64,000 nucleotides of DNA, taken from the IMG/VR virus record IMGVR_UViG_3300020190_000007, positions 64,001 to 128,000 of that record; one strand, given 5' to 3'. The translations under genes were made by a program, and so were the position numbers. Position 1 is the stretch's first letter; every line of letters starts with the position of its first letter. Origin of the DNA: a virus. Positions 12,043-40,502 of this stretch are shown piece by piece. The notes under the pieces are model-generated. The model worked only from the letters and a program-made list of their open reading frames with translations. It was not told the DNA's origin and did not search any database.

Positions 12043-14004
12043 TTAATTAAATTGAGGTGGCAAGGTAAAAGATGTGTAATCTAATTGTGAAGGTGTAACC
12101 GTTTGACGCATTTCATTTACCACTGATGGACTTTTATACATTTCCCGAACAACCGCATCCAAAACAGGACCATTTGTTTTAAAGTTATGTTCGTGTTTAT
12201 AATTAACCACTGCGGCCGTTTGATTTGAGTTTTGATTATTGGTATTACCTTTTAATTTATTTTCCAAATCAGATTCACTTACACCCATACTTTTAGCAAC
12301 CAAAGCTTTAGCGGGTGCAACTGCTTCACTAACCATCTTAGAAAATAACTCTTCGTCCGTTTTTTGTAACCCACCTAAACTTGTTTTTTCTTTTAAATTT
12401 TCAGATAACTCTAACCCTTCAATGTATTTGTCAAATTCAGCTAAAGGTTGTCTTATTGTCGCGGCCGCTTGTACCTTAGCAACTGTTAATAATGCACTTA
12501 TGTCTTTTTGCATATTTTGGGTTGCGGTATATTGGTCTCTTGCAATATCTTCAACAGACATATCTTCAAAAGCTTTTTGGTTCTCTAATAAACCTTTTGC
12601 AATTGTTGGACTTAATTCATCTAATGCAACTTTAGTATCCTGCAATCCTAATTCTTTTGCCAAGGATTGAGGGATGTCAATAACCATTCTACCACCCTCC
12701 ATTTTAGAGATGTTGGTTAAGAACTCTTTTTCTTTTTCGTCAATTTGTAGACCTGATGATAACAACGCGGTTGCTGCTGACGACCTTTCCGCAGCTTTGA
12801 TTGCGGTTTTAGACATCTCTTCCATACTCATACCCATTTGGTCCGCTAATGCTTTAGATTTTCTAAGATTAGCTCCTGTGATTTCAAACCTACCTAATTC
12901 AGTATTATATGTGGCTAATGAACCTGCAACACCTATCATAGCATCTTGTAATCCACCAGCATCGTTGGTCGCCATATACATTAATTTTAATGGGTCATTA
13001 AAGTCACCAATAGCGCCTCCTATAGCTTGTAATTCAGCAGATAACGCAATTGCTTGGTCCGGGTCAAAAAGTTTTTCCGCCATTGTTTTAACCTTTTCAA
13101 TATTCATATTAAATTCAATAGACTTCTGAACCATTCTGGTTAATCCCTCAACACCATTTTTAAATCCAATGGTATTTAATTTGTCCATATTAGCACCAAC
13201 ATCCGCCACTACTTTTCTTGCATTTAAACCAAGAGTTAATGAACTTTTACCCGCTTTGTCAATTTCTTTGATTGCATCTTTTGCACCAATACCTATTTTG
13301 TCAAAACTATCTAACGCGGCACCCAATCTATATAAATCACCATAAAATGCTCTTGCTGTTTTTTGAGATTCTTGTAAAACATCTTTACCGAATGTTGTCA
13401 TCTTACCAGTTTGTTCAACCATTTGTACTGAATAATCTTTCACATCCTCAAAACTAAATCCCATGGCGGTTGCGGCTGGTAATGTTTCAAATATATTGTT
13501 TCTAAATTGTCTCGATAATTCACCGGTTAAACCAAGTTCAGAATTAATTTTATTTCTTAATTCCACTTCTTGTTTTTGTATTTTTTCCAATTCTTTACCG
13601 AGAAAAGACACCATTTCACTAGTTCCTTTAACACCTAATTGAACCATAAAATCAGGTAGATTTTTTGATTCTCTCGCTATTTTACCTATTGTTTCAGATA
13701 TGGTGCTAAATTGAAATACAGTATCTTTTTGTAATGATAATGATGAAACAGGATTTGAATACCCTAAGTCCGCAATGTCTTGTGTTTTTAGTAAGTCGGT
13801 TGCATAAGACGCTGTTTTACTACCCGCACCTCCTGTGTTCCCTCCGCTTGATGGTTCTTTTTGGTTATAAAATGACCAATAATCATCTACTTTACCCATT
13901 AAAGAACTATTATTCTGTACTGATTGCAATTTTAAGAACTCGTTTTTGAATTGAGTATAATTTAAACCTGCTCTTAGTTTGGATACCTCTTCATTAATTG
14001 TCAT
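12043..14004 (-). CDS. Tape measure protein
   Basis: 653-aa Ala/Gly/Leu-rich helical protein after tube and chaperone genes; KALADQMGMSMEEMSK-type repeats. Confidence 0.75.
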   Translation of the reverse strand: MTINEEVSKLRAGLNYTQFKNEFLKLQSVQNNSSLMGKVDDYWSFYNQKEPSSGGNTGGAGSKTASYATDLLKTQDIADLGYSNPVSSLSLQKDTVFQFSTISETIGKIARESKNLPDFMVQLGVKGTSEMVSFLGKELEKIQKQEVELRNKINSELGLTGELSRQFRNNIFETLPAATAMGFSFEDVKDYSVQMVEQTGKMTTFGKDVLQESQKTARAFYGDLYRLGAALDSFDKIGIGAKDAIKEIDKAGKSSLTLGLNARKVVADVGANMDKLNTIGFKNGVEGLTRMVQKSIEFNMNIEKVKTMAEKLFDPDQAIALSAELQAIGGAIGDFNDPLKLMYMATNDAGGLQDAMIGVAGSLATYNTELGRFEITGANLRKSKALADQMGMSMEEMSKTAIKAAERSSAATALLSSGLQIDEKEKEFLTNISKMEGGRMVIDIPQSLAKELGLQDTKVALDELSPTIAKGLLENQKAFEDMSVEDIARDQYTATQNMQKDISALLTVAKVQAAATIRQPLAEFDKYIEGLELSENLKEKTSLGGLQKTDEELFSKMVSEAVAPAKALVAKSMGVSESDLENKLKGNTNNQNSNQTAAVVNYKHEHNFKTNGPVLDAVVREMYKSPSVVNEMRQTVTPSQLDYTSFTLPPQFN

Positions 14005-14947: not shown

Positions 14948-14983
14948 AAAGGTCTCCTTTTGAGAGACCTTTTATTGACAGAT
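14948..14983. terminator. Intrinsic terminator after the tail tube gene (possibly bidirectional)
   Basis: AAAGGTCTC-loop-GAGACCTTT inverted repeat with A/T tracts. Confidence 0.75.
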
Positions 14984-14997
14984 TTTTTATTATTTGA

Positions 14998-15486
14998 TTA
15001 GTAAACTAAAATACATCTATCCATTCTTAACGAACATGTGATAGATGCAATATCATCTCTTGAATAATCAAGTTCGTTAAAGTTTAAGTCGGTTATGAAA
15101 GAACCTTGAAGTATCCATTTTTCAACCACAACCCCCGTTGGGTCTAACATCTCTAATTCAATATCCTTTTTATAACCAGCTGCGTAACCCATACGACCTG
15201 TTACTGATTCGGCGTGTAGACGGAACCATTCCATCAACGCTTGTGACGCTGAAGGACCAATTGGGTCTTTGAAGGTTACTCTTATTTCACTCCATTCAAA
15301 TCTACCAGCAACATATGTTGAGGTGTTTATAAAAGGAATTGCAACTGAATTTATTTTTGCGCTTGGTCTTGCACTTGATGTTACATACCATTCATTTATT
15401 CCTAATGATGAAGGAAATCTAAGTATGAATCGGTTAACTCTTTTCGGTTCGTAAGGAACCGGCATTTTCATTAATAAATCTGCCAT
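14998..15486 (-). CDS. gp19: Tail tube protein (T4 gp19-like)
   Basis: YEPKRVNRF, SARPS, YVAGRFEW, GYAAGYKKDIELEMLDPTGVVVEKWIL; next to the sheath gene. Confidence 0.9.
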   Translation of the reverse strand: MADLLMKMPVPYEPKRVNRFILRFPSSLGINEWYVTSSARPSAKINSVAIPFINTSTYVAGRFEWSEIRVTFKDPIGPSASQALMEWFRLHAESVTGRMGYAAGYKKDIELEMLDPTGVVVEKWILQGSFITDLNFNELDYSRDDIASITCSLRMDRCILVY

Positions 15487-15609
15487 GTCAATATTTGTTT
15501 TTTATTTTTTTTATTTTTAATCTTTCTTATAAATATGTTGTATATGAAAAAACAAAAAAAATCTTCTCAATACTTGATTTTGTGAAAATTATTTCGTATT
15601 TTTTCCATA

Positions 15610-15726
15610 CTAGTACTAGATGCTAGTAAATTAAGAACTAGATTAAAGAAACTAGAATAACTAGAAAGAAATAAACTAGATAAAAATAAACTAGAACTAG
15701 AACTAGAATACTGGTGCATATACTGG
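15610..15726 (+). repeat. Irregular array of 10 CTAG cores (7 AACTAGA) plus 2 ACTGG variants
   Basis: CTAG at 15610, 15616, 15623, 15638, 15652, 15661, 15676, 15691, 15697 and 15703 in a non-coding gap. Confidence 0.9.
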
Positions 15727-15786
15727 GTAATTTATAATTTTATTTTTTTTATATTTAGTAGTTCCGTAGGTCACACTATATTATAA

Positions 15787-15802
15787 TGTTCCACGTGGAA
15801 CA
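15787..15802. promoter_or_regulatory. parS: parS-like palindrome TGTTCCACGTGGAACA
   Basis: Perfect 16-bp palindrome (18 bp with flanks) matching the chromosomal ParB/Spo0J site pattern TGTTNCACGTGNAACA. Confidence 0.75.
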
Positions 15803-15803
15803 T

Positions 15804-15833
15804 AAAATAGGGAGGGTTTCCCCTCCCCTTTTT
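15804..15833. terminator. Bidirectional intrinsic terminator after the sheath gene
   Basis: GGGAGGG-TTTC-CCCTCCC hairpin with T tracts on both strands. Confidence 0.8.
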
Positions 15834-15834
15834 A

Positions 15835-18690
15835 TTAGATATCATCAAATGATGCTCCTGTTGGTGTAATTATGAACTCAACATCTATGAATTCTAGAGC
15901 TCTTGTTGGTTTGATATAAATCTTACCTCTCAAAGTATTAGAGTCAATGTCTTCTGGGTCGTTGGAAACCGTAACACGGAATTCATATAAACCCCTTTCC
16001 CTTTTAATTGCATCTAATATTGGGTTAACCAATCTCAAGAATTCATTACGAACTTGTTCGTCATTTTGTTCGAATAACAATCTTACCGCTACTGCCGAAA
16101 TTAATTTTCTAGCCCTTAACAATAATCTTCTTACGTTAATTCTATCCAACGCCGATTCACGAATTTGAAGGGTTTTGTTACCCCATATAATTGTGCCGGT
16201 ATCTGCGTATGTTGCTATTGGGTTAATTCTAGCTTTGTATAGGTCATCTCTTTCATCTAAAGTTAATTTCTTAACCGCTTTAATTGAATTTACTAATCCT
16301 CTTGAATAACCCGCTACCGCAAACCAAGGGAAAGATACGTTATCGGTTAACGCAATATTTCTTAAAACTTCACCAGTTGGTGGTAGATATATTTGTACGG
16401 CGTTGTCTACGTCTCTAACTTGAATCCAAGGCCAATAAACAGCTGAATAATTACTATCAATCGACACACCGTCCAAAGCGTCTATTACTTCATCCGCAGT
16501 ACTGTAGTTTGGTGGTGAAATTACGTAAAGAGAATCCGCTCTATCGTCTTCAATCATATCAATTGCATATGACGTTAAAGAACTATTGTCATAGAAGTTA
16601 ATACCCGGTGTTGCAAAAATGTTTATATCAACTGATTCAGGATTTGAGAAGGTGTCAATACCTTGGGCGTAAGCGTAGTAATCAGAGTTTCCCGATACCG
16701 TGCTAAACACGCCTCCATTATTGGTATTACCACTTGTGTAAGTGTTTTTACCAAAGATGAATCCATCACCGTAGGTTCTCACATTTCTATAGATATCCCA
16801 ACCATCAAATCCTCCAGCAGCGGTAAAAGTGAACTTACGATAATTGATGTTTGTCAATACGTTACTAACTCCACCTGTTTGACCCTCTAAATCATACGAT
16901 GTAGTTAAGAAAGTTGTTCCTGTGATTGTAGACGCGTTTGTTGATAAGTGGAAACCCTTAGTCGTACCAGCCGCTGAAGTTCCTTTGAATTTAAATAAGT
17001 CCCTATCGTATGTTACTTTATTGGTTGGACTTGATAAACCAAAGTATGTTTTTCTCACTTTATCACCTGAAGATAAAACCGGTGTTCCATCTGCGAGATA
17101 AGATTCGGTATCACCAGCATTAAAGAATGTAGTTTTGTAAATCACAGAACCCAAAGTGTCTGAACCGAAAGTACTGTTATTCGGGAATCCTTTAAATCCG
17201 GCGGGATATGCGTCAACGGGGTGATTATCAGACATTAACAGCATAATGTATTTTGAACGTATTTCATATTCACCATCGGATGTACCAACCTTTTTAGCCA
17301 CATAATTAGGTAAATCTGGATTCATACTACATCTACTAAATTTTTCAAGTACGACAATATTATTGTCTGTATCGTTAAAATCTCTAACAATTAAGTCAAA
17401 GTCACCCGTGTCTATATTGATATTAATAATAGAAATTTTTACCTCAAAGTTCGCTGCGTCCCCGTCTGATATTGTAATTACATCAAATAAATCATTGACT
17501 TCACCACCTCTTACTTCAGAAACAACAGTTGGTGATATTGGAGTATCATAAGACGTTTTAAAGTCATTACCAACAGTTTCATAAGATTCTGTTAAGCTTA
17601 AACCTCTAATATATCCTTCTTCATAAGCTCTTAACAAATAATTTGGATAAGCTTCAAATACATAAATAGGAACGTCACCTTTTAATTTGTCATAAACATC
17701 TGTACCAAATACTTTTGTTACATATTTTGATGACGACGCATCCATACTACAAGTAAATGATTTTGCTCCGCTCGTTGAACCTGTAATATTCACTGTAAAT
17801 TCAGCTAAAGGATTTGTAGTAATTCCTGAACCTGTCACAATGAAATTAGCATTCCCCGTGGACTCTAAGTTTAAAGTTTGTTGGCTGTAAGAGCCTCTTG
17901 GTCTGAACGCTAAAACAACCTGATTATTATATGCCGTATTGAGTGTTGCGTTGTAGGTGAACTTAGTCACATCAAATCTACTTGCACCACTGTTGTATAC
18001 AAATAAGTAAGAATACACTTCAGAACCCGCGGAATTTACTAAAACATTATACCATTCCTTATTGTTATTATTATTTGCGTTATTTAAACCTGTTAGAGGA
18101 GAAAGTTCTTCAAGTGATGCGGTTTGACCAGAGGTTTGTGAAGTTGGTACTTCACCCATAACAAACCACTCTCCATGATTAGATGATGTGTTACCACTAA
18201 AGTTTGCCACAATATAATCTGTAATATAATTTCCATCTACAGATATTTTATCTGATAGTTCACTATAAATCGTACTTGCCGTGATTGTTGTGGTCTGTGC
18301 TGACATTGTTAAACCCGTGGTTGTACCACTAAGCGATTCCAATATAACACCAGCAATTGTCTTAACCCCGTAAGTTTTAACAGGTAAGTAACCCGTTAAA
18401 CCCAATATTTTTGTTACAAATAATTGGTTTGATTCTTCTAAATAAGATTTTGCAAAATAAGGTAATTCATATTTTGGGTTATTGTTGTTGTCTTTTAAGG
18501 GACTTGTTCCTCCAAAATATGACTTGAATTCGTCAAAATTAGTTATTAATAAAGGTTCAAAAGCGGGACCCTTTAAGGTTTCACCCACCAAACCTAATGT
18601 GCTGACACCAACACTTTGTGCCACGAATGTTAAGTCTTTTTCGGATGTGTATACACCCGGAGATACAAAAACTCTATTTGAATTTGCCAT
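15835..18690 (-). CDS. gp18: Contractile tail sheath protein (T4 gp18-like)
   Basis: SPGVYTSEKD, YSAVYWPW, PWFAVAGYSRG, INPI, WGNKTL, LDRINVRRLL, IKPTRALEFI. Confidence 0.95.
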   Translation of the reverse strand: MANSNRVFVSPGVYTSEKDLTFVAQSVGVSTLGLVGETLKGPAFEPLLITNFDEFKSYFGGTSPLKDNNNNPKYELPYFAKSYLEESNQLFVTKILGLTGYLPVKTYGVKTIAGVILESLSGTTTGLTMSAQTTTITASTIYSELSDKISVDGNYITDYIVANFSGNTSSNHGEWFVMGEVPTSQTSGQTASLEELSPLTGLNNANNNNNKEWYNVLVNSAGSEVYSYLFVYNSGASRFDVTKFTYNATLNTAYNNQVVLAFRPRGSYSQQTLNLESTGNANFIVTGSGITTNPLAEFTVNITGSTSGAKSFTCSMDASSSKYVTKVFGTDVYDKLKGDVPIYVFEAYPNYLLRAYEEGYIRGLSLTESYETVGNDFKTSYDTPISPTVVSEVRGGEVNDLFDVITISDGDAANFEVKISIININIDTGDFDLIVRDFNDTDNNIVVLEKFSRCSMNPDLPNYVAKKVGTSDGEYEIRSKYIMLLMSDNHPVDAYPAGFKGFPNNSTFGSDTLGSVIYKTTFFNAGDTESYLADGTPVLSSGDKVRKTYFGLSSPTNKVTYDRDLFKFKGTSAAGTTKGFHLSTNASTITGTTFLTTSYDLEGQTGGVSNVLTNINYRKFTFTAAGGFDGWDIYRNVRTYGDGFIFGKNTYTSGNTNNGGVFSTVSGNSDYYAYAQGIDTFSNPESVDINIFATPGINFYDNSSLTSYAIDMIEDDRADSLYVISPPNYSTADEVIDALDGVSIDSNYSAVYWPWIQVRDVDNAVQIYLPPTGEVLRNIALTDNVSFPWFAVAGYSRGLVNSIKAVKKLTLDERDDLYKARINPIATYADTGTIIWGNKTLQIRESALDRINVRRLLLRARKLISAVAVRLLFEQNDEQVRNEFLRLVNPILDAIKRERGLYEFRVTVSNDPEDIDSNTLRGKIYIKPTRALEFIDVEFIITPTGASFDDI

Positions 18691-20939: not shown

Positions 20940-21452
20940 TTAAATTCCTCTAAATTCAGATTCTTGGGCTATTGCACAAGTGATGGTTCTATAATGAGGT
21001 CTGAAACCAAACATATTATGTTTATTATCTGAAGTAACCTTTCCATCGTTTACTACCGTATAGTATCTAATTCTTTCTTCTGATTCGGGATATCCAATAA
21101 AGTCACCATATCTAATATCAATATCCATTTCTTCAAGATGTTTGATGTATACGGATACTGTCATATTACCAGGTTCCAAATATCTATTTACACCTTTAGT
21201 GTATGAATTATTTTTAGGTTCTTCAATTTTAACCAATCCAAAAAATTCAGTAGGTGGTAAAAATTTAATTTGGTCTTTACCCACCTCACCATAAACATCA
21301 TCTGTGTCGGTTTTTTGTCTATCTACCCTAAATAGAACTAATTTCATACCCAAATCACCATGCAAATATTCTTCACCTAACTGAACATTTAAATCAAAAT
21401 CAGTTTCAGAAAAGAACTTACTTAGCCTGGTTATTGGTAGTTTATTTTTCAT
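20940..21452 (-). CDS. Neck/head-closure protein (T4 gp14-like)
   Basis: [21 protein letters not shown]; position next to the tail terminator-like gene. Confidence 0.65.
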
Positions 21453-28544: not shown

Positions 28545-28913
28545 TTAAAAAATGGTAATAAATAGTTTTTCTTTAACGGGAAGTATCAGTTTTGTGGTTG
28601 GATTTAAACTTGTATTTAAAAATTGAACGGTTATTTTACCTTCGTATTTACCAACTATAGCGGTTTGAGATTCGGTAAATTGATGAGTGATATAATATTC
28701 GTCGGTCGTTTGATTGTATTTTTTATCTCTTGTTGTAATCAAACATGTGGAGTTCAATATCTCGGGTTCACCCGTTTCCACATCGTACATATCAAAAGTA
28801 ATGTCACAACTTTCTAACATGTCATTAAATCCTGACTTATCATTTTTTCCATCATCAATAAGTCTCATTTTTAAAATTGGTTGCGACGCTCCCTGTCTTA
28901 TAAAAAATTCCAT
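28545..28913 (-). CDS. Small Ig-like virion protein (BppU N-terminal-like)
   Basis: FFIRQGASQPILKMRL...TAIVGKYEGKITVQF...LILP; TATTTATA upstream. Confidence 0.55.
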   Translation of the reverse strand: MEFFIRQGASQPILKMRLIDDGKNDKSGFNDMLESCDITFDMYDVETGEPEILNSTCLITTRDKKYNQTTDEYYITHQFTESQTAIVGKYEGKITVQFLNTSLNPTTKLILPVKEKLFITIF

Positions 28914-29183: not shown

Positions 29184-30905
29184 TTAGTAAATTACAATAT
29201 AGTTAGGGCATGGGTCAAACACAGAGTTAATTGTTACTGATACAAGATTTTCACCAGGTATTAACGAATTGATATTAACTTGTTTGTGATGCTGGTTTGT
29301 TGACATAACTGTCGTAGCGTTTGCTGTCCCACCTAAACTACCCAAAACACTAAAGTTTATTGTGACATTACATAACGCTTGTGCTGGTATTGTATGACCG
29401 CTGTCTTCCCATAAATGGAAATCTGCGTTATTATTATTCAATCTAACCCCCGTTAAGTATTGGGTTGTTATAGAAGTAGATGTCGGGGTTGGAGTGGGAG
29501 TAGGAGTCGCAGTTGGTGTAATTGAAGGAGTCGGTGTAGAGGTTGTTGTTAAAGAGGTCATACTATCAATACAATCTGTGACACACTCAGTTATATTATA
29601 ATATGGTTTAGTGGATACTAAATAATTGTGACTAACTCTAACAAAATTTAATGGTTCTTCATAGTATCTAATTCTTTTATAATTAAAACATGAAATTCCC
29701 ATATTATGTATTCCTCCCGAATATTGGGTACCACCCGCCCACGATTGAATCATAGGTTGATACCCCCTTGTTGAGGGTATAACTTCCTCCCACCCTTTTA
29801 ATTTATATATTGTTCTACCATTTAAGTAAATTTTCAAAGTACCCACTCTTCTTCCTCTTTCTAAAGCCCATTTTTTATTTAAAACTTCAATGTCTTCAAA
29901 TGTTGGGGTGGCTCCGGTTAACCAATCACTAATTGCGGTTGTAAGTGTTCGTCCAGTAATTAAATCGTTCCAACCACCATCATTTTCTATTCTACAATCT
30001 GTATAATATTTGTCTCTTTCAAAAGAAATTGTGATATTAAAATCATTTGACGTTCCGTCTGTACATAAAACAGGTGTTTGTCCTGAGGAAGTATAAAAGG
30101 TTTCGGTGAATCCGCTATTTGTTACACATATTCCCGAATATCTAATTGACCTCCATTGTATTCTACCATCATTTGTAAATGAAAATGATAAATTATTATC
30201 GGCATAATCTAATAAATCGTTCTCACCACGAACACCTAAATAATAAATAGTTCTACCGCTTATCCAATCTAAACCATTTCTATTTAGTACTAGGTCAATA
30301 GTCCAACCTTTTTCTGTTCTTCTATGTACTTTATATGAACAGTTATCAGCGCCGGCACCGTGGTTAATTTGATAAGCCCATGGTTTCGCTTCGGGTATGG
30401 AATCTTGAGGGCAACAATTATCTGTATCGGCTAATTTAGCGACACAAGCGTAAGACGCTCCCGTTATTCCTGTTGTGAAACCTGAAGTGTTGAGTGAAAA
30501 TGGGTTTGAAATTGAATTATTGTATCCGTTATTCCTCAAATAGTGAGTATTACTATAAAGTTTGTAAGAGTATACGTCGTTTTGTAAAATAATATCTGAA
30601 TTTCCTAATGTGTTGGTAAACGCCGAGTAACTTAAAGTCCAAGTTAATGCAGAATACGTGTAACCACTGTCATTCACACTATTGTTATACTCAATTAAAG
30701 ATATCGTATCTCTAACGCAATCAGTGTTTTGTAGCGATGTTGTATTAATTGTTAGTGCGGTATAAGTTATGGCGGTATTTAAATCTAAAACTAATTCATC
30801 ATAGTCGTCTTGAGTTTTTGATATTTCATAATCATAGTACTCCGATGAATCTAATTGTAAATCTAACCTACTACCATAATATTTGAGTATGTTTTGACTA
30901 TTCAT
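29184..30905 (-). CDS. Virion structural protein (LamG/concanavalin-like core, TPTP linker, C-terminal beta domain)
   Basis: GWTIDLVL, GTLKIYLNG, IRYYEEPL; Cys/Thr-rich; TATTTATA upstream. Confidence 0.55.
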   Translation of the reverse strand: MNSQNILKYYGSRLDLQLDSSEYYDYEISKTQDDYDELVLDLNTAITYTALTINTTSLQNTDCVRDTISLIEYNNSVNDSGYTYSALTWTLSYSAFTNTLGNSDIILQNDVYSYKLYSNTHYLRNNGYNNSISNPFSLNTSGFTTGITGASYACVAKLADTDNCCPQDSIPEAKPWAYQINHGAGADNCSYKVHRRTEKGWTIDLVLNRNGLDWISGRTIYYLGVRGENDLLDYADNNLSFSFTNDGRIQWRSIRYSGICVTNSGFTETFYTSSGQTPVLCTDGTSNDFNITISFERDKYYTDCRIENDGGWNDLITGRTLTTAISDWLTGATPTFEDIEVLNKKWALERGRRVGTLKIYLNGRTIYKLKGWEEVIPSTRGYQPMIQSWAGGTQYSGGIHNMGISCFNYKRIRYYEEPLNFVRVSHNYLVSTKPYYNITECVTDCIDSMTSLTTTSTPTPSITPTATPTPTPTPTSTSITTQYLTGVRLNNNNADFHLWEDSGHTIPAQALCNVTINFSVLGSLGGTANATTVMSTNQHHKQVNINSLIPGENLVSVTINSVFDPCPNYIVIY

Positions 30906-32211: not shown

Positions 32212-32874
32212 ATGCCAACACAATTAGAAATAATCGGAGATAGAGAAAGAAATATTCTCATGTCTAAAAATGAGTACAATCTTGGAGATTTGTATAGTTC
32301 AAATAATACTGGAGCGCTGTCAGATGGCGATGAAAGAGGTAAAGGAGAATTAAATAATAGTATTGGTTCTAAAACAGATATTGTAGAAAGAACTTCTTTA
32401 GTTGCAAAAAATCTTTACGGCCCAACAAATGAATACAGTTCAAATAATGCCGGCGCGTTATCAGATGGCGATGAAAGAGGTAAAGGAGAGTTAAATAATA
32501 GTGTTGGTTCTAAAACAGATATTGTAGAAAGAACTTCTTTAGTTGCAAAAAATCTTTACGGCCCAACAAATGAATACAGTAGTGGTAACCCCAATGCACT
32601 ATCAGATGGCGATGAAAGAGGTAAAGGAGAATTAAATAATAGTATTGGTTCTAAAACAGATATTGTAGAAAGAAACGGTCTTTTGTCTAAAAACATTTAT
32701 AATAATTCTTTTGAATATTCTTCGGGCAACCCTAACGCCTTATCAGATGGCGACGAGAAAGGTAGAGGAGAAAACAATACGGGTGGAGTTGGTACCTTAA
32801 CAGATATTAACGAAAGAACGACTTTAGGCGCTAAAAACAAATACGGTAGTACAAAAACTTACCCCGATTTTTAA
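32212..32874 (+). CDS. Repeat protein made of about four 47-aa units
   Basis: ALSDGDERGKGELNNSIGSKTDIVER unit repeated with 141-bp period. Confidence 0.75.
   Translation: MPTQLEIIGDRERNILMSKNEYNLGDLYSSNNTGALSDGDERGKGELNNSIGSKTDIVERTSLVAKNLYGPTNEYSSNNAGALSDGDERGKGELNNSVGSKTDIVERTSLVAKNLYGPTNEYSSGNPNALSDGDERGKGELNNSIGSKTDIVERNGLLSKNIYNNSFEYSSGNPNALSDGDEKGRGENNTGGVGTLTDINERTTLGAKNKYGSTKTYPDF
32293..32860 (+). repeat. 141-bp coding tandem repeat, about 4 copies
   Basis: cagatggcgatgaaagaggtaaagga at about 32321, 32462 and 32603, with a diverged copy near 32744. Confidence 0.9.
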
Positions 32875-33728
32875 TGATAAAATTTCAATCAATATTAACA
32901 AACATTTTATCCGAAGCGCCTACAAGAAGTACACAAAAAACCCTTGAAAACGCAATCAAAAATAGAATGCCTGTGTCTTTTGATTATAGAGGACCCAAAG
33001 GAGAGGTTCAACCTGGTAGAAGAATCAAAACGGAATTAGTTGCATCGGGATTAACAAAAAAAGGAAATTTAGCGGTAAGGGGTTATGTTAAACCACCATC
33101 AGTATCTAAAAAAGGATTTAGAAAACATGGATGGAGAACATTTATTATAGATAGAATATCGTCAGGTTCAATCCAAGTTTATGAGGATGAACAATTCAAT
33201 CAGAAAAGACCCGGATATAAAGAAGGTGATGATAATAGTTTTTCTACAACATATGTTACAAGTGATTGGGGAGCAATGAAACAACCCCAACAAACAAAAC
33301 CAACACCATCACCAGAACCAAAAAGAAAAGAAGAACCCAAAAAACAAGAACTACCACAACCAAAACCAAAAGAAAAACCATCCACTGTCCCTGTTGAAAC
33401 ACCAAAAAGAGAAGTTGAGGTTTTCAATGATTTAAAAACAAAGGTTAAAGTTGTTGACAATATCAAACAAATTAGTCCTGAAGAATTTAAAACCGCCATT
33501 GAAGATTTATACAAAAAGAAAATGGACGATTGGAAAAAATCTCAAGTAGATATTGGGGGAAATTTAAACGCTGGCGAAGGTACGAGAAGAAGAATTGAAA
33601 AAGACTCGGAATTAGATTTAGATAGATTATTAAAACAAGATAACATTAAAGTTATTGAACCCCCATCAGAAGAAACTGTTGAGTTACAAGAACAATTAAA
33701 AAGAATCAAGACTTTAATTTTGTTTTAA
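32874..33728 (+). CDS. WYL-domain protein with Pro/Lys linker and helical C-terminus
   Basis: LENAIKNRMPVSFDY...GRRI..ELVASG...LAVRGY...GWRTFIIDRI is WYL-like. Confidence 0.7.
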   Translation: MIKFQSILTNILSEAPTRSTQKTLENAIKNRMPVSFDYRGPKGEVQPGRRIKTELVASGLTKKGNLAVRGYVKPPSVSKKGFRKHGWRTFIIDRISSGSIQVYEDEQFNQKRPGYKEGDDNSFSTTYVTSDWGAMKQPQQTKPTPSPEPKRKEEPKKQELPQPKPKEKPSTVPVETPKREVEVFNDLKTKVKVVDNIKQISPEEFKTAIEDLYKKKMDDWKKSQVDIGGNLNAGEGTRRRIEKDSELDLDRLLKQDNIKVIEPPSEETVELQEQLKRIKTLILF

Positions 33729-33755
33729 AAATACTTATTTTATAAAAAAATCAAT

Positions 33756-34337
33756 ATGGAAAAAACAGGACAAGGCGTAATATCACAAAATGATTTAATG
33801 CAAAGATTAGTGCAAGCCAAAAAAGTGTTGAACAAAGTTGAGACTGGTGACTTTGAAACAGGTAATGTTAATGAAGAAATACTAAGAAGTAACCCTGAAG
33901 ATATTTTATCGTCAACAACTCAAAACCTACAAGTAAGACAACCACAACAACCAAATTTACAAAAAATACAAGAATCTAAATTACCCGAAGTAATCAAAAG
34001 AGCGATGATTGAAAATCCAATACCACAAATTAGTTTATCGGATTCTTTAGATTTAAACTTTGTCGAAAAAACAAAAAAACTAATGGAATCAGAGGGTGTT
34101 GTCACAAAAAAATCTACACAACAAAGGAGTTCACAAGTAGATAGTTCAGATTTGGTTAAACAACTTACACCAATAATTGAAAACATTGTAAGAAAAACTG
34201 TAGTCGAAATAATGGATTCCAAACTTAATCAAATTTTAACAGCGCAACAAACCATGAGTATTAATGAAAATTTAGTATTAAAGGTTGGTGATTCCGTCTT
34301 TAAAGGTAAAATTACAGGGGTAAATAAATCTAAGTAA
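33756..34337 (+). CDS. Hypothetical protein
   Basis: 193-aa ORF in the operon. Confidence 0.65.
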   Translation: MEKTGQGVISQNDLMQRLVQAKKVLNKVETGDFETGNVNEEILRSNPEDILSSTTQNLQVRQPQQPNLQKIQESKLPEVIKRAMIENPIPQISLSDSLDLNFVEKTKKLMESEGVVTKKSTQQRSSQVDSSDLVKQLTPIIENIVRKTVVEIMDSKLNQILTAQQTMSINENLVLKVGDSVFKGKITGVNKSK

Positions 34338-34389
34338 GTTTGACTTTTTCAATTTCTTTTCTTATAATTTATAAAAAGAAAAGATTTGA

Positions 34390-35610
34390 ATGTCAAAAAT
34401 TAAAATTTTAGCAATACCCCCCGATACACATGGTGTAGGTAAATATAGAATATTAGACCCATATAAATTTATTGGAGACCATTATAGTGACGAATTTCAT
34501 GTCGACATTACATTCTCTGCTGAAAACAACGATAATTTCTTTAAGAACTACGATATTGTGGTCTTCCACAGTTTTATCCATCAAACGAGTCACGAAGAAA
34601 ATATTTCAAGAATTAAGTGGTTAAAATCTCAGGGTATTAAAACCGTAATGGATATTGATGACCATTGGTCTCCCGACCACAGACACCCAATGTATTTTCA
34701 CATTAGAGAAAGTGAGCTACCAAAGAAAAAAGCTGACATGATGAAAGAGTCGGACTACGTTACGTGTACGACTGAATATTTTGCCGATACTTTAAGAAAA
34801 AGATTAAATTTAAAAAATGTTTTAGTATTCCCTAACGCAATCGACCCAAATGAGAGCCAATTTAAACCTAAACCCACACAATCAGATAGACTTAGATTTG
34901 GGTGGCTTGGAGGTTCAACCCACTTACATGATTTAGAACAAATTAGAGGTGGAATTTCAATGATTAATAATGAATACGATAATATTCAATTTGTCTTGTG
35001 TGGTTACGATTTAAGGGGTTCTATTACTGAGGTAAATCAACAAACAGGTGAAAAAAAAACACGACAAATTCAACCCACGGAAACGGTTTGGTACAAATAC
35101 GAACAAATATTTACGGACAATTACAAAACAATTGACTCTGAGTATAAATCATATTTAATGAATTTTACACAAACACCAGAAATTGACGATAGTGATAAAA
35201 AATATAGAAGAGTTTGGACACAACCAATTGGAAAATATGGTTATAATTATAACTTATTTGATGTATCTTTAGCACCAATTATACCCTCACAATTCAACTC
35301 CTGTAAATCACAGTTAAAAATAATCGAGGCGGGTTTCCATAAAAAACCTATTATTGCAAGTGAAACATTGCCCTATACGATTGATTTAAAAACAGCATAC
35401 AAAGAAGGTAAGTTGTTAGATAACGGTAACGCTTTATTAGTACATGAAAACAAAAACCATAAACTGTGGTCAAAGTATATGAAATTATTAATAAATAATC
35501 CAAATATGGTTGAAGATTTGGGTAATAGATTATACGAGACAGTGAAAGACAAATACTCTTTAGTAACAGTTTCAAAAAACAGAACAGAATTTTTCAAATC
35601 AATAATTTAA
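34390..35610 (+). CDS. Glycosyltransferase, GT-B fold (GT4-like)
   Basis: GVGKYRI, MDIDDHW, VFPNAID, FGWLGGSTHLHDL, DVSLAP..FNSCKSQLKIIEAG. Confidence 0.85.
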   Translation: MSKIKILAIPPDTHGVGKYRILDPYKFIGDHYSDEFHVDITFSAENNDNFFKNYDIVVFHSFIHQTSHEENISRIKWLKSQGIKTVMDIDDHWSPDHRHPMYFHIRESELPKKKADMMKESDYVTCTTEYFADTLRKRLNLKNVLVFPNAIDPNESQFKPKPTQSDRLRFGWLGGSTHLHDLEQIRGGISMINNEYDNIQFVLCGYDLRGSITEVNQQTGEKKTRQIQPTETVWYKYEQIFTDNYKTIDSEYKSYLMNFTQTPEIDDSDKKYRRVWTQPIGKYGYNYNLFDVSLAPIIPSQFNSCKSQLKIIEAGFHKKPIIASETLPYTIDLKTAYKEGKLLDNGNALLVHENKNHKLWSKYMKLLINNPNMVEDLGNRLYETVKDKYSLVTVSKNRTEFFKSII

Positions 35611-35622
35611 AAACAAAAAACC

Positions 35623-35856
35623 ATGCATTATTTAGTAACAGTAGGTTATGAAACCGAAAATTTAGACAGAAACGGTAATTCAAGATTGCAAAAAGTTAAG
35701 TACATTGTAGAAGCTGAGTCGGTTGAAGAAGCAACTTTGGTTGTTTCAAAGTACAGAGCCGGAGACACGAGGTCTTCAGAAAGTTTGGCGATTGTAAAGA
35801 TGCCAATCGAATGTATTATTGACCCACAAAATACTCCTGAGTACTTTAAAAAATAA
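35623..35856 (+). CDS. DUF4494-like small protein
   Basis: VTVGYE...NGNSRLQKVKYIVEAESVEEA resembles the Bacteroidota DUF4494 N-terminus. Confidence 0.5.
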   Translation: MHYLVTVGYETENLDRNGNSRLQKVKYIVEAESVEEATLVVSKYRAGDTRSSESLAIVKMPIECIIDPQNTPEYFKK

Positions 35857-35861
35857 TTAAA

Positions 35862-36428
35862 ATGTTAACCGCAGAGCAAATAGAGTCAAACAAGAAAAAG
35901 TTTCTTGAAACAAACTCGAAATATAAAATTTTTACAGAAGAGTTGTTAGACTTTTTGGGTAATGACTTTTTTTTAGCACCAGCTTCCACATCTTTAGACA
36001 TGTATGGGTGTTTTCCAGGTGGATTATTGGGTCATTGTTTTAAAGCCGCGAAGTATTCGGTTAAAACCAATGAACTACTCCCTGAAACAATGAGGGTAGA
36101 AACGTCTTCTATTTTGAAGTGTATATTTTTATCACAGATTGGTAAAACTTTTATGTTTAAACCAAACCCAAGTGAATGGCATAGAAAAAACCTTGGTAAA
36201 ATGTACGAATTCAACGAACAGGAAGTTTCAATGAAATCAGGTGAAAGGGCAATATATTATGCGGTAAACAACGGGGTAAAATTATCAGAAGACGAATTCC
36301 AATCAATCATGAACTCGGATAAAGAATCGGATGATAAAATGGCTAAGTATCGTTCTGGTACTTTATCTAATGTAATAAGAGTCGGTTTTGAACTATCAAT
36401 ATTAGAAGAAAAAAATGGACAAAAATGA
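35862..36428 (+). CDS. HD-domain-like protein with degenerate metal ligands
   Basis: APAS....GGLLGH...LSQIGK, where LHDxGK is expected. Confidence 0.6.
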   Translation: MLTAEQIESNKKKFLETNSKYKIFTEELLDFLGNDFFLAPASTSLDMYGCFPGGLLGHCFKAAKYSVKTNELLPETMRVETSSILKCIFLSQIGKTFMFKPNPSEWHRKNLGKMYEFNEQEVSMKSGERAIYYAVNNGVKLSEDEFQSIMNSDKESDDKMAKYRSGTLSNVIRVGFELSILEEKNGQK

Positions 36429-37014
36429 AATTGAGTCGTATATTAAACGACTCCAAGAATTAGAAAAAGAAATCCTTAACGATAACTCCGATGATACGTC
36501 AATTATGGGAGACTTAAATAATTTGTTATTTAGTCTTGGTGATGATATCAAAAATCAAGTTGAGGAACAAGTTAATCGATTTGAAGTAAAAGTTAAAAAA
36601 TTACATCCTGACGCAGTGATTCCCAAATACGCAAAAGATGGAGACGCGGGAATGGATTTAGTTGCAACATCAATCTTATCGGAAACCACAACTCATGTTA
36701 CTTATGGTACAGGAATCTCTATTGAAATTCCAAAAGGTTTTGTTGGGTTAATATTTCCTCGCTCATCTATTAGAAAATATGATTTATCATTAACAAATTG
36801 TGTCGGTGTAGTTGATAGTGGATATAGGGGGGAATTACAAGCAACATTCAAAAAATCTAATTGGTTAAAAGGAAATGAATCTGAAAAATATCAAATCGGT
36901 GATAGGATTGTTCAAATAATGATAATTCCATATCCTTCAGTCACTTTTGTTTGGGTAGACGAATTATCTCAAACAGACAGGGGGGAAGGGGGGTTTGGTT
37001 CTACGGGTTCATAA
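36415..37014 (+). CDS. dut: Trimeric dUTPase with an N-terminal acidic extension
   Basis: AGMDL, PRSS, GVVDSGYRGE, DRIVQ, RGEGGFGSTG. Confidence 0.95.
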   Translation: MDKNEIESYIKRLQELEKEILNDNSDDTSIMGDLNNLLFSLGDDIKNQVEEQVNRFEVKVKKLHPDAVIPKYAKDGDAGMDLVATSILSETTTHVTYGTGISIEIPKGFVGLIFPRSSIRKYDLSLTNCVGVVDSGYRGELQATFKKSNWLKGNESEKYQIGDRIVQIMIIPYPSVTFVWVDELSQTDRGEGGFGSTGS

Positions 37015-37037
37015 TAATTTTATTAAAAAAAACTGAA

Positions 37038-37754
37038 TTGAGAAAATCAACAATAAAAACCGTAAATGTAGTGGAAGATAAAAAAACATCTAAAAAAGAT
37101 AGAATTAGGCAAATTATAAAACAACCTAAAGAAAAATTTCTTAACAAAAATCAAGAAAATTATTGGAAAACTTTAGGTGAAAATGAAATAACATTTTGTT
37201 TTGGACCCGCCGGTGTTGGTAAATCTTATATTGCAATGAAAAGGGCTGTTGATTTACTTTGGGACGAAAATAATAAATATGAAAAAATTATTATCGTTAG
37301 GCCAGCGGTCGAAGCGGAGGAAAAATTAGGTTCACTACCCGGTGGATTAGAAGAAAAACTAGACCCATACATCTATCCTTCATACTATTTACTAAATAAA
37401 ATAATAGGTAAAGAGGCAAGAGAAAAATTAAAAGATGAAGGGTTTATTGAAATTGCCGCATTGGCTTATATGAGAGGATGGAATGTTGACAATACAATTT
37501 TAGTCTTCGAAGAGGCTCAAAACACAACCCCGTCCCAAATGAAACTTTTATTGACCCGTATTGGGTTTAATTCAAAATTTTTTATTTCGGGAGATTTAGA
37601 ACAATCAGACAAATTTAAAGACAAAACAAAAACCGGATTATACGACGCAAAAGTAAGACTTGGTGATTTAAAAAACATCGGTGTATTTGAATTTAGTAAT
37701 GAGGATATTGTTAGAAATCCAATTATTACTCAAATCTTAAAAATGTACGATTAA
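37038..37754 (+). CDS. phoH: PhoH-family ATPase
   Basis: GPAGVGKS, RPAVE..EKLGSLPG, AYMRG, EEAQN, GDLEQSD, DIVRN; probable TTG start near 37038. Confidence 0.93.
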   Translation: MRKSTIKTVNVVEDKKTSKKDRIRQIIKQPKEKFLNKNQENYWKTLGENEITFCFGPAGVGKSYIAMKRAVDLLWDENNKYEKIIIVRPAVEAEEKLGSLPGGLEEKLDPYIYPSYYLLNKIIGKEAREKLKDEGFIEIAALAYMRGWNVDNTILVFEEAQNTTPSQMKLLLTRIGFNSKFFISGDLEQSDKFKDKTKTGLYDAKVRLGDLKNIGVFEFSNEDIVRNPIITQILKMYD

Positions 37755-37791
37755 ACTTTACTTATAAAATTTTATAAATTATATTTCCTAT

Positions 37792-38472
37792 ATGGAAATA
37801 TTTGTTGGTATTGATGGTGTTTTAAGAAATACAATACAGAAATTTGATTACCATTATAGAGATTATTTTTTAAACACCGAAACATGTGAGGAAGAAAAGT
37901 TTGATTATGGTGTAAATGGTGTGCCAATATCTATTGAAAATTTGTTAAGTACCTACAATTTTCAATCAATCGATGAATTTAATAAATTTTTATATTTTGA
38001 TTTCCCAATTGAAATATATGGACACGCCGGTTTGAGTTATAATCAAGCAGCCACTGAATTAAACAAATTAATTTTTGAAAATAAAAACCACAAAATAACC
38101 TTAGTTGGTTTAAGCGAAAAGGGTAAAGCAAAACCCGCCACACTCTTTTTTCTTTCAAAAAATGGTATTATATGTGATAATATCATTTTTTCAACGACTG
38201 GAGAAATAAAAAAATTATGGAAAAAATGTGATTTATGGATAACGGATGATATAAATGTTGTTTCACAATGTCCAATACACAAAAAAGTTATAAAATTTAA
38301 TACCTTTTATAATAATAACTTTACAAATAAACTACAAATAAATAAATTATCAGAAATAAATAAAACATGGTTGAAATTTTCGGTAAAAACTATTATATCG
38401 ATGTTGATAGAATCAGTGACAAATGTCAAACGGGTAATCAAATTCAAAATGAGGACGGAATCACAACATTAG
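37792..38472 (+). CDS. HAD-superfamily 5'(3')-nucleotidase-like protein with altered motif I
   Basis: VGIDGVLRN in place of DxDGVL; WITDD. Confidence 0.6.
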   Translation: MEIFVGIDGVLRNTIQKFDYHYRDYFLNTETCEEEKFDYGVNGVPISIENLLSTYNFQSIDEFNKFLYFDFPIEIYGHAGLSYNQAATELNKLIFENKNHKITLVGLSEKGKAKPATLFFLSKNGIICDNIIFSTTGEIKKLWKKCDLWITDDINVVSQCPIHKKVIKFNTFYNNNFTNKLQINKLSEINKTWLKFSVKTIISMLIESVTNVKRVIKFKMRTESQH

Positions 38473-38648
38473 AAATAAACCTATTTAAATATGAGATTAT
38501 TAAAAGTTGTATTGAGAGAATACTAAATGAGTTTGATGAAGTAGATGAAGAATTGGGTGAATTTGGCCAAAGTAGTTTATCAACATCTTTTAAAATTGCT
38601 TTTAATACTCTAATAAAATATGACATACTAATATCAGAAGATGAATAA
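38367..38648 (+). CDS. Hypothetical acidic protein
   Basis: 93-aa ORF whose stop overlaps the next gene's start region. Confidence 0.65.
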   Translation: MVEIFGKNYYIDVDRISDKCQTGNQIQNEDGITTLEINLFKYEIIKSCIERILNEFDEVDEELGEFGQSSLSTSFKIAFNTLIKYDILISEDE

Positions 38649-39726
38649 CAAAGAAAATATAGAAAAATTATCGGTTGCTTTAGAAAAACTAAAAACCAAA
38701 ACCAACACCATATATTTTTTGGTGTACGATACAAAAAAGAATCCAAGAGCGTCAGTAAAGCATATTTACGACATCGCTTTAACTTTAAAACAAAGTGGGT
38801 ATAATTCAAAATTACTTGTTGAAGATAAAACATATTCAGGAGTGAATTCTTGGTTGGGTGACAATTACTCCGAATTAGAAATTGTAACAATTAAAGACGA
38901 CCGAGTTGAAATCAAAATTGAAGATGTTATTATTGTTCCTGAGTACTATTCGAACGTGTTGGAATCTATGACCAATATTAGATGTGTAAAAGTCATGTTA
39001 GTTCAACAAAAAGAATACATTTTTGAAACATTACCAATTGGTAGTAGATGGTCCGATTACGGATTTGATAGGGTAATCACAACTACTAAATTTTCTAAAA
39101 AATATATTAGTGAGATTTTTCCCGAGTCTCTGGTGCATATTATTCCTCCAATTATAGGTGATGAATTTAAGGTTAATGATAAAAATACAAAACCAATTAT
39201 TTCTATAATGTGCAAAGACAGGTCAACAAACAAGAGAATTATATCTGAATTTTATATTAGATACCCACACTTGAGGTGGTTGACGTTTAGAGACATGGTT
39301 AATATGTCTTATCAAGAATTTGCTGATAACCTGAGAGAGTGTATTGTTTCAGTATGGGTAGATGAAGATTCCACATTTGGGACCTTCCCATTAGAATCGA
39401 TGAAATCGGGAGTACCCGTAATCGGTAAGATACCAAAGAATGAACCAGATTGGTTAAGTGAAAATGGTATGTGGACATATGACGATTCAAAAATTGTTGA
39501 AATCCTCGGAACATATATTAACGCTTGGTTGGAGGGTGTTGAAATTAATGATGATATCAAAAATAAAATGAAAGACACGTTGTTGCCATATGAATCAGAT
39601 ATTACAAAAAGTAACATATTAAATATTTTTGATTCATTTATAAATAAAAGAATTGATGTAATAGAACAAGCAATAAATAAAATAAAAGAAGAATTTAATA
39701 AATCAACTAAAGAAGAGGTATCATGA
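38641..39726 (+). CDS. Glycosyltransferase, GT-B fold
   Basis: DVIIVPE, STFGTFPLESMKSGVPVIG (ExFGxxxxEAM-type motif, first Glu altered). Confidence 0.75.
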   Translation: MNNKENIEKLSVALEKLKTKTNTIYFLVYDTKKNPRASVKHIYDIALTLKQSGYNSKLLVEDKTYSGVNSWLGDNYSELEIVTIKDDRVEIKIEDVIIVPEYYSNVLESMTNIRCVKVMLVQQKEYIFETLPIGSRWSDYGFDRVITTTKFSKKYISEIFPESLVHIIPPIIGDEFKVNDKNTKPIISIMCKDRSTNKRIISEFYIRYPHLRWLTFRDMVNMSYQEFADNLRECIVSVWVDEDSTFGTFPLESMKSGVPVIGKIPKNEPDWLSENGMWTYDDSKIVEILGTYINAWLEGVEINDDIKNKMKDTLLPYESDITKSNILNIFDSFINKRIDVIEQAINKIKEEFNKSTKEEVS

Positions 39727-40502
39727 AAGACATATCAATAATTTTACCCATTCATAAATGGGATGAGGAATATGAAACGATGTTTAGAAACGCGTTCAGT
39801 TCAGCCGAACAATTTTATAACGATGTAAAGTTGATAATTGTTGGGCCACCAAGTGTTGTTTCAAAAATAAACATTGAACAATCTAATTTGGAGTATAAAA
39901 TAATGGAAAACAGTGGTGAACAAGATTTTTGTTCACAGATTAATCTAGGTATCACAAATTGTGACACAGAGTGGTTTTCTATTTTGGAAGTTGATGATGA
40001 ATATCACAAAAATTGGTTAACATTAGTAAACTCATACAGAAAAGAAAACCCTGAAGTTGGGGCTTTTTTAAGTTTAGTAAAAGATATCAATGTTGAAGGA
40101 AAGTTTTTAAGTTACACCAATGAATCAACTTGGGCCTATGGATTTACAGATAAACAGGGATTCTTAGATAATGAAGCTTTATTAGAATACCAAAACTTTC
40201 AAATTAATGGTGGCCTATACAAAACATCTGTTATAACAGAGTATGGTAAATTAAAATCAAACATCAAACTAACATTTGGTTATGAATTTTTATTAAGGTT
40301 AACACATAACAATGTGAATGTCATGACGATTCCGAGATTAGGATACCAACACGTAAACTTTAGAGAGGATTCTTTATTTTGGAATTATAAAAATTCAGAA
40401 AAAATGAGACTTTCACAAGAAGAGGTTAAATTTTGGTTAAACACAGCAAAAAAAGAGTTTTTCTTCAAAAACGTAAGAGATATAAATTATGTAGAAAATT
40501 AA
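39723..40502 (+). CDS. Glycosyltransferase, GT-A fold (GT2-like)
   Basis: ISIILPI, QINLGI..CDTEWFSILEVDDEY, YEFLLRL. Confidence 0.75.
   Translation: MKDISIILPIHKWDEEYETMFRNAFSSAEQFYNDVKLIIVGPPSVVSKINIEQSNLEYKIMENSGEQDFCSQINLGITNCDTEWFSILEVDDEYHKNWLTLVNSYRKENPEVGAFLSLVKDINVEGKFLSYTNESTWAYGFTDKQGFLDNEALLEYQNFQINGGLYKTSVITEYGKLKSNIKLTFGYEFLLRLTHNNVNVMTIPRLGYQHVNFREDSLFWNYKNSEKMRLSQEEVKFWLNTAKKEFFFKNVRDINYVEN

Follow-up and report, generated by a model that had tools for sequence, protein, structure and literature searches.

A chromosomal-type parS palindrome in the tail sheath-tail tube spacer of large lake phages, a probable docking site for a ParB-type protein

The question raised by the locus

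Why would a phage that looks lytic carry, between two of its tail genes, what reads as a perfect copy of the centromere site of bacterial chromosomes, and which protein would bind there? The sequence that raises this question is ATGTTCCACGTGGAACAT, a perfect 18-bp palindrome at positions 15786-15803 of the window, that is, of the whole 64,000-nucleotide stretch that was analyzed (positions 64001-128000 of a linear virus record of 170,860 bp, 55% complete by the CheckV estimate). The inner 16 bp (15787-15802), which contain two inverted GTTCCAC half-sites, match the chromosomal parS at 16 of 16 positions, and A/T flanks complete the 18-mer.

A single parS-type palindrome between the tail sheath and tail tube genes

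A pattern scan of the window with TGTTNCACGTGNAACA identifies one exact match, at 15787-15802, which is also the sole exact match in the entire 170,860-bp record, so that the preliminary description, where the palindrome was presented as the only such match in the window, holds and extends to the record. When up to two mismatches are allowed, one extra match appears in the window (35352-35367; 0.26 expected). By our own arithmetic from the base composition, an exact match is expected approximately 5e-4 times per record. Half-sites number 56 genome-wide, against an expectation of about 36-49, and thus are neither clearly avoided nor clearly enriched. Given that the identical spacer is found on at least 10 contigs from different metagenomes, the palindrome is not an assembly artefact. 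A search of the region for near-identical sequences among GenBank phages yields no match.

Two other features of the record lie outside the window. A one-mismatch parS-like 16-mer with the center CACCTG is located inside a gene (virus record 40456-40471), and similar spellings are present in two relatives (G111:227672 and G112:252524); this 16-mer may owe its presence to conservation of the coding sequence and not be a site. A 21-bp palindrome occurs six times inside a long gene encoding Thr-Pro-Ser-Val repeats (virus record 32793-38951), and these six copies are a by-product of the coding repeat.

The palindrome is located in a 348-bp spacer that extends from the terminator side of the tail sheath gene (15835-18690, minus strand, 951 aa; phrog_23, E-value 3.9e-59) to the tail tube gene (14998-15486, minus strand, 162 aa; phrog_4542, E-value 2.5e-24), which has its own terminator at 14948-14972 and is followed by the baseplate hub gene. 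The site thus lies between the sheath stop and the tube start, in agreement with the intergenic location originally assigned to it. In the minus-strand reading, the spacer opens with the sheath terminator (15809-15828), a G+C-rich hairpin followed by a T run that scores as a terminator on both strands, and the palindrome begins 5 nt past the terminator stem. An A/T-rich stretch then separates the palindrome from two CCAGTAT repeats (15708-15726; ACCCAGTAT, with 5 nt between the copies, CCAGTAT being the minus-strand reading), a motif that is unique in the record. The adjacent segment (15609-15706) is an array of about 11 short CTAG-centered repeats (AACTAGA-like) that is present family-wide. 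The tetranucleotide CTAG is found 156 times genome-wide, against 506 expected (about 30% of the expectation), and a record-wide scan shows that CCCAGTAT is confined to the sheath-tube spacer, which is itself unique within the genome. The module formed by the CTAG array and the CCAGTAT repeats (15609-15726) is kept across the family, even in lineages that lack the palindrome; its candidate roles are an origin, a regulatory platform and an array akin to a centromere.

Closer to the tube gene, the spacer contains the box TATTTATA (15528-15535, minus strand), at a distance of 49 nt from the tube start codon. Of the 72 genes preceded by non-coding sequence, 19 have this 8-mer 11-49 nt upstream, where about 1.1 would be expected; examples are the genes at 12043-14004, 20940-21452, 28545-28913, 29184-30905, 54460-56274 and 56327-58102. 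Judging from this distribution, TATTTATA is probably the main (late-type) promoter element of the phage and the proximal promoter of the tube gene. The box is near the tube start and the palindrome is about 250 nt upstream, that is, outside the proximal promoter of this gene. As a separate observation, TATTTATA reads as the T4 late-promoter box when reverse-complemented.

Identity of the palindrome with bacterial parS

For Pseudomonas aeruginosa and P. putida, this very 16-mer has been published as parS, and it has been used as a ParB site in experiments; in other species, changes at positions 1 and 16 of parS are tolerated (PMC7022226). The ParB protein of P. aeruginosa also binds lone GTTCCAC and GTTTCAC heptamers as well as parS-like sites with two substitutions (PMC10419367). 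The exact 16-mer is present in more than 120 bacterial genome stretches across many phyla, often in 2-5 clustered copies, and the carriers include Flavobacterium, Algibacter, Chitinophaga, Daejeonella and Flavobacteriales genomes. Among 101 sampled genomes of the class Bacteroidia (a count that includes G096, which is marked as unpublished and is used for no other statement), 69 contain exact sites, 1-3 each. In the Bacteroidia sites, position 5 is always T or C and position 12 always A or G, and a control with the reversed pattern yields close to zero matches. The A/T flanks are the commonest flanks of the bacterial 16-mer copies (45 of 163, compared to about 10 expected), and their addition gives the 18-mer of the phage.

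Thus, the phage sequence is identical to the parS of chromosomal ParABS systems, preferred flanks included, in the spelling that is used by Pseudomonas and Bacteroidia. It differs from the chromosomal sites in that it is carried by a virus, is present in a single copy and is not near a known origin or a parAB operon, no parAB being detected in the record; furthermore, many relatives of the phage possess one-mismatch versions. The initial proposal that the palindrome matches the site of chromosomal ParB/Spo0J is borne out by the 16/16 identity, and the comparison with parS of Bacteroidota hosts that was suggested at that stage points in the same direction, the phage spelling being in use in 69 of the 101 Bacteroidia genomes. 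On the strength of these matches, the palindrome is, in sequence, a genuine chromosomal-type parS.

The relevance of Bacteroidota is suggested by the upstream regions of the phage genes, none of which (0 of 154) contains a Shine-Dalgarno motif, a pattern compatible with a host from this phylum. A canonical ParB is encoded in all five site-carrying Bacteroidota genomes that were checked, in each case on a contig other than that with the site.

Conservation of the site in related jumbo phages

Several hundred IMG/VR loci from lake metagenomes, collected by sheath homology, yield 102 distinct sheath-tube spacers. The 14-bp core GTTNCACGTGNAAC is perfect in 15 of these, has one mismatch in 47 and two mismatches in 13, and in the other 27 it either has at least four mismatches or is absent. 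A core with at most two mismatches is therefore found at the same place in 75 of the 102 spacers, compared to 0.2% of shuffled spacers, which never reach one mismatch or fewer; its position is always 27-84 nt past the sheath stop codon. Loss of the palindrome in related phages would have counted against a parS, and the observed retention is the opposite outcome. Judged by these alignments, the conserved palindrome is not a product of chance.

Perfect cores extend to lineages in which the sheath protein shares 100/90, 87, 75 and 65-66% identity with that encoded in the window, and one of the carriers is a complete genome of 310,542 bp with terminal repeats. The perfect 18-mer, too, is found again in several lineages. 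Each of four near-complete or complete relatives has one strong site per genome, and additional one-mismatch matches in relatives show no conservation of position. A majority consensus built from 44 distinct variants departs from parS at position 16 only. Single mismatches mostly fall on the central positions 8-10, the common one-mismatch variants having the centers CACATG, CACGCG and CACGAG, and the left half of the site is better conserved than the right half in this 44-variant alignment. The close relatives of the phage toggle exactly positions 5 and 12, as is tolerated in Bacteroidia, and in one lineage positions 6 and 11, neither of which varies among host sites, have both changed in a symmetric manner. 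In several lineages, additional GTTCCAC heptamers adjoin the site, in direct or inverted order.

The distance between CCAGTAT and the parS-like core is 31-35 nt in most relatives, with a diverged intervening sequence, and 52-62 nt in the clade of the window; clades with perfect sites depart from the 31-35 nt spacing.

Partition genes and a ParB-like protein of the phage family

Neither ParB_N (PF02195) nor the ParA-type AAA_31 domain (PF13614) has a match in the 170,860-bp record. In three large relatives, one of them 93% complete, searches with the ParB_N, HTH_ParB and TIGR00180 profiles detect nothing above the cut-off, and tubulin, tyrosine integrase and Tet_JBP are not found either. Given the absence of the partition genes that were searched for and of the tyrosine integrase, the phage looks lytic and devoid of a partition cassette. 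Tubulin-based partition was likewise considered and discarded, having not been found in the relatives searched. The original statement that the window contains no parA or parB accordingly stands and extends to the whole record; what it does not cover is a divergent protein with a ParB fold that is encoded by the relatives.

This protein of about 250 aa (e.g., L083:958-1713 on the minus strand, L210:1477-2223, and L429-L431) matches phrog_12305, "ParB-like partition protein", over the full length (E-values 6e-22 and 2e-27) and has 636 homologues, many of these on contigs of 200-335 kb. There is no sequence match to any solved structure. The AlphaFold2 model (mean pLDDT 89.5) gives structural matches to ParB, KorB and Noc with Z-scores that span 9.8-11.8: the N-terminal domain aligns structurally with its counterpart in ParB (7bm8, Z 11.4, rmsd 1.9 A, 90 residues), and two-domain matches are obtained with KorB (8qa9, Z 10.2, 169 residues), Noc (7nfu, Z 9.8, 168 residues) and, more weakly, Spo0J (1vz0, Z 6.1). 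According to this model, the protein of the relatives is composed of a ParB N-terminal domain and a ParB-like central helical domain. In place of the CTP-binding GERRxR, the nucleotide-binding motif reads DGQHR, as in DUF262/DndB proteins; a match to GmrSD_N is weak; and a C-terminal block, EMIEDIYNY...KLNLRF, is invariant. In a profile alignment with Bacteroidota ParBs, the N-terminal domain alone aligns (hhalign probability 70%), so that the DNA specificity of the phage protein cannot be derived from that of host ParB.

The gene is present on perfect-site contigs of the window's own clade, including contigs with sheaths 95-97% identical, and in every complete or near-complete site carrier that was checked (G001, G002, G109, G111 and G112). 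Gene and site are separated by about 150 kb, and the window's record, which is 55% complete, does not contain the gene; the collinearity with G001 indicates that it would fall outside this record fragment. Lineages without the site have sheaths that are about 82% and about 74% identical. The contigs of the clade that lacks the site do not exceed 92 kb and thus are shorter than the distance between gene and site. The spelling of the site does not co-vary with the protein, given that clades sharing the same spelling encode ParB-like proteins that are 40-45% identical.

Alternatives to recognition by host ParB

A palindrome that arose by chance and has no function is the explanation that we find hardest to credit. 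The AT-rich phage spacers are rich in palindromes, with about 60 that have arms of at least 8 nt in the record, but the low expectation for an exact match and the retention of the site in 75 of 102 diverged spacers run against it. An RNA or DNA hairpin, i.e., a second stem-loop behind the sheath terminator that would serve stability or termination, or part of a small RNA, appears very improbable as well. A 5-bp stem with a 4-nt loop can fold directly after this bidirectionally scoring terminator; however, in the 44-variant alignment, pairing is kept at 79.2% compared to 78.0% in shuffles, with only 7 double-change cells, the combinations T..G and C..A both occur at positions 5/12 so that no single strand keeps the pairing, the additional half-sites also come in direct-repeat order, and Rfam yields no match. 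The RNA hairpin was rejected because there is neither covariation beyond the column composition nor an Rfam match. The lack of covariation together with the varied extra GTTCCAC half-sites favors a site for a protein, and independent changes at positions 5 and 12 are tolerated by bacterial parS but not by a single RNA strand. Two further candidates were dismissed on simpler grounds: a multi-copy promoter motif, given that the inverted repeat occurs once per genome, and a leader micro-ORF starting from the ATG of the palindrome, given that several lineages have no start codon there. If the site is bound by a protein, this could be some other transcription factor of the phage or the host, for which the palindrome would be an operator that acts jointly with the CTAG array and CCAGTAT to control late transcription of sheath and tube or to insulate the two units, the likeness to parS being fortuitous. 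Dimeric regulators unrelated to ParB commonly read 5-6-5 inverted repeats, and such an operator would fit the fixed position behind the sheath terminator and 31-35 nt before CCAGTAT in most lineages, the uniqueness of the spacer in the genome and the asymmetric conservation of the two halves. We nevertheless regard it as rather unlikely: a chance match is hard to reconcile with a consensus that equals parS at 15 of 16 positions and with perfect 18-mers in several lineages, the tube gene has an ordinary TATTTATA promoter box some 250 nt away and there is no known promoter beside the site, one target in a 310-kb genome would be unusual for a regulator, and the spacing does not hold for the clades with perfect sites.

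The phage family's own ParA-less ParB-like protein with the DGQHR motif is a stronger contender for docking at the single site, albeit one that we hold to be doubtful. It would form with the palindrome an orphan pair in the style of ParB or KorB, e.g., a clamp-like regulator or organizer of the late region, and the identity with host parS would then be inherited or convergent, with host ParB being irrelevant or a competitor. The full-length phrog_12305 match, the structural model with its ParB, KorB and Noc matches, the size of the family and the presence of the gene in the window's clade and in every checked complete or near-complete site-carrying relative all speak for this possibility, and the lineage-specific variants of the site, including the symmetric double change, fit a co-evolving private reader. 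Conversely, the sequence alignment to true ParBs is limited to the N-terminal domain, HTH_ParB and TIGR00180 give no match above the cut-off, and DGQHR takes the place of GERRxR. Moreover, KorB, Noc and P1 ParB read other sequences, so that the exact host spelling of the phage site, along with the toggling at host-tolerated positions, would have to be put down to coincidence; clades with one and the same site have proteins that differ by 55-60%; and the gene of the protein is distant from the site and not in the window's record.

Host ParB as the favored reader

In view of its sequence and its conservation, the palindrome probably serves a ParB-type protein as a functional docking site, and we give an even chance to the more specific reading that the host's chromosomal ParB recognizes this single parS-type site. 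Under the host ParB reading, dimers of the protein would recognize the two inverted GTTCCAC half-sites and load there, and would then spread onto the flanking phage DNA, over the late-gene region, thereby tying the phage genome to the ParABS and SMC machinery of the host. Host ParA and SMC might then position the infecting genome or pass it on while lysis is delayed, in a carrier or pseudolysogenic state. By analogy with the parS-Spo0J interaction of phi29, the benefit would be expected in slow-growing or starved lake bacteria. Two side effects are conceivable, namely titration of ParB after the phage genome has replicated, since hosts carry 1-3 sites and the replicating phage would outnumber them, and a copy-number-dependent damping of the neighboring late genes. 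The latter effect is possible given that ParB complexes can repress adjacent promoters in P. aeruginosa (PMC5521831). Binding, the binding protein and the benefit are all parts of what we infer here.

Several observations point to host ParB: the exact 16/16 match that includes the flanks; the toggling, in close relatives, of host-tolerated positions only; the DNA-binding part of the phage ParB-like protein, which is too diverged to be aligned with host ParB and would be unlikely to share the exact host spelling; and the precedent in the lytic phage phi29. Other observations argue against it. One-mismatch sites are the commonest class (47 of 102), although tight binding by an invariant host dimer should select for two perfect halves; the right half has changed more than the left; one lineage has the symmetric double change at the host-invariant positions 6 and 11; and the family possesses a ParB-fold protein of its own. 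In addition, the absence of the site in 27 of the 102 spacers implies that it is dispensable, and the 31-35 nt spacing to CCAGTAT in most lineages suggests that the site functions within a composite element, whereas simple loading of ParB would require no such partner. Modification of the phage DNA could also block ParB. Recognition by host ParB and recognition by the phage protein are compatible with each other: in any cell that contains ParB, this protein should bind a perfect parS regardless of other readers. The suggestion in the preliminary description that the phage uses host ParB, ParA and SMC is therefore sustained in part: the parS spelling, its conservation, the lack of a canonical parB and the phi29 precedent are in its favor, and the second candidate reader in the relatives and the central mismatch in most of them weaken it.

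Comparison with known systems

The kind of mechanism envisaged here, a host-type parS on a lytic phage that makes use of host ParB, is already known from phi29. In PMC2731898, which cites Meijer et al. 2005, lytic phi29 is described as carrying five parS sites for host Spo0J, by which its genome gets into the spore. As in the present case, a phage classed as lytic and lacking its own parAB carries a host-type parS. The two differ in most other respects: phi29, a podovirus of 19 kb, infects a Firmicute that forms spores, has five sites and gains entrapment in the spore, whereas the phages described here are myoviruses of about 310 kb with a Bacteroidota-type host and one parS-type site at a fixed place between sheath and tube, and their family encodes a ParB-fold protein besides. 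We know of no endospore formers among the Bacteroidota. Apart from engineered ParB/parS labelling, the phi29 work was all that literature searches on chromosomal parS in jumbo or lytic phages retrieved. Compared to phi29, the new aspects are the non-spore-forming host phylum, the family of myoviruses of about 300 kb, and the single fixed site in a composite conserved spacer, alongside a ParA-less ParB-fold gene.

The KorB-OB pair of RK2, the Noc-NBS pair and the orphan ParB-fold proteins of phages (PMC12704722) resemble the present case in combining a ParA-less ParB-fold protein with a palindrome on one chromosome; the differences here are one site instead of many dispersed ones, the parS spelling of the host and the DGQHR motif of the protein. 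Centromere sites on phage DNA are also found in P1 (parABS), N15 (sopABC) and mycobacteriophages (parABS), but these cassettes belong to temperate phages, encode their own ParA and ParB, act on private sites and serve extrachromosomal inheritance, whereas here ParA and tyrosine integrase were not found and the site is that of the host.

parS on other viral contigs and implications for phage biology

The exact 18-mer is present on at least 120 IMG/VR contigs (L212-L331) with unrelated flanks and G+C contents of 26-71%, and a palindrome of the same composition in reversed order has no IMG/VR match. Among the 120 matches listed, 9 belong to the phage family analyzed here. The other 111 listed loci (median length 7.8 kb) give three weak matches to canonical ParB profiles and none to the profile of the phage ParB-like protein. 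The genes beside the listed viral sites encode, e.g., a phi29-like capsid, connector and packaging protein (Gp16), lysozymes, Mom, Acb3 and TET-associated glycosyltransferases; a Pfam scan of the ORFs on these contigs identifies four genes of the latter kind next to sites. Host-type parS sites that are orphan at least locally thus seem to be widespread on phage-like contigs. A recurrent group of viral contigs (G+C about 0.49) contains paired parS sites 7-8 nt apart, in CC/GG and TC/GA spellings (L222, L229, L239, L242, L243, L251, L256, L264, L300, L301, L304, L307 and L321). ParB proteins associated with 5mYOX that lack a DNA-binding domain have been described (PMC13229309), and the paired-site contigs might be connected with such proteins. 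For the phage family itself, a link to TET/JBP DNA modification, considered in view of the TAGT genes beside other viral parS sites, was rejected because no Tet_JBP is found in the family.

A broader idea, which we put forward tentatively and consider on balance unlikely, is that orphan host-type centromeres are a general phage device, used by lytic Bacteroidota lake phages of about 300 kb and represented on at least 100 unrelated contigs, through which host ParB, ParA and SMC would handle the viral chromosome and allow dormant or carrier inheritance without lysogeny genes, with the ParB-fold protein of the phage modulating or replacing host ParB. The presence of the 18-mer on so many viral contigs, mostly without a nearby parB, suggests a broad phenomenon that can be surveyed across viromes. 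The site is small, exactly defined and conserved, so that the idea is directly testable. If host ParB does load at this site, large phages of abundant freshwater Bacteroidota that are taken to be "lytic" would have a means of being inherited or positioned by the segregation system of the host, and the parS-type palindrome would open a molecular route to pseudolysogeny and carrier states, which are frequently observed in nature but, beyond phi29 and Bacillus, poorly understood.
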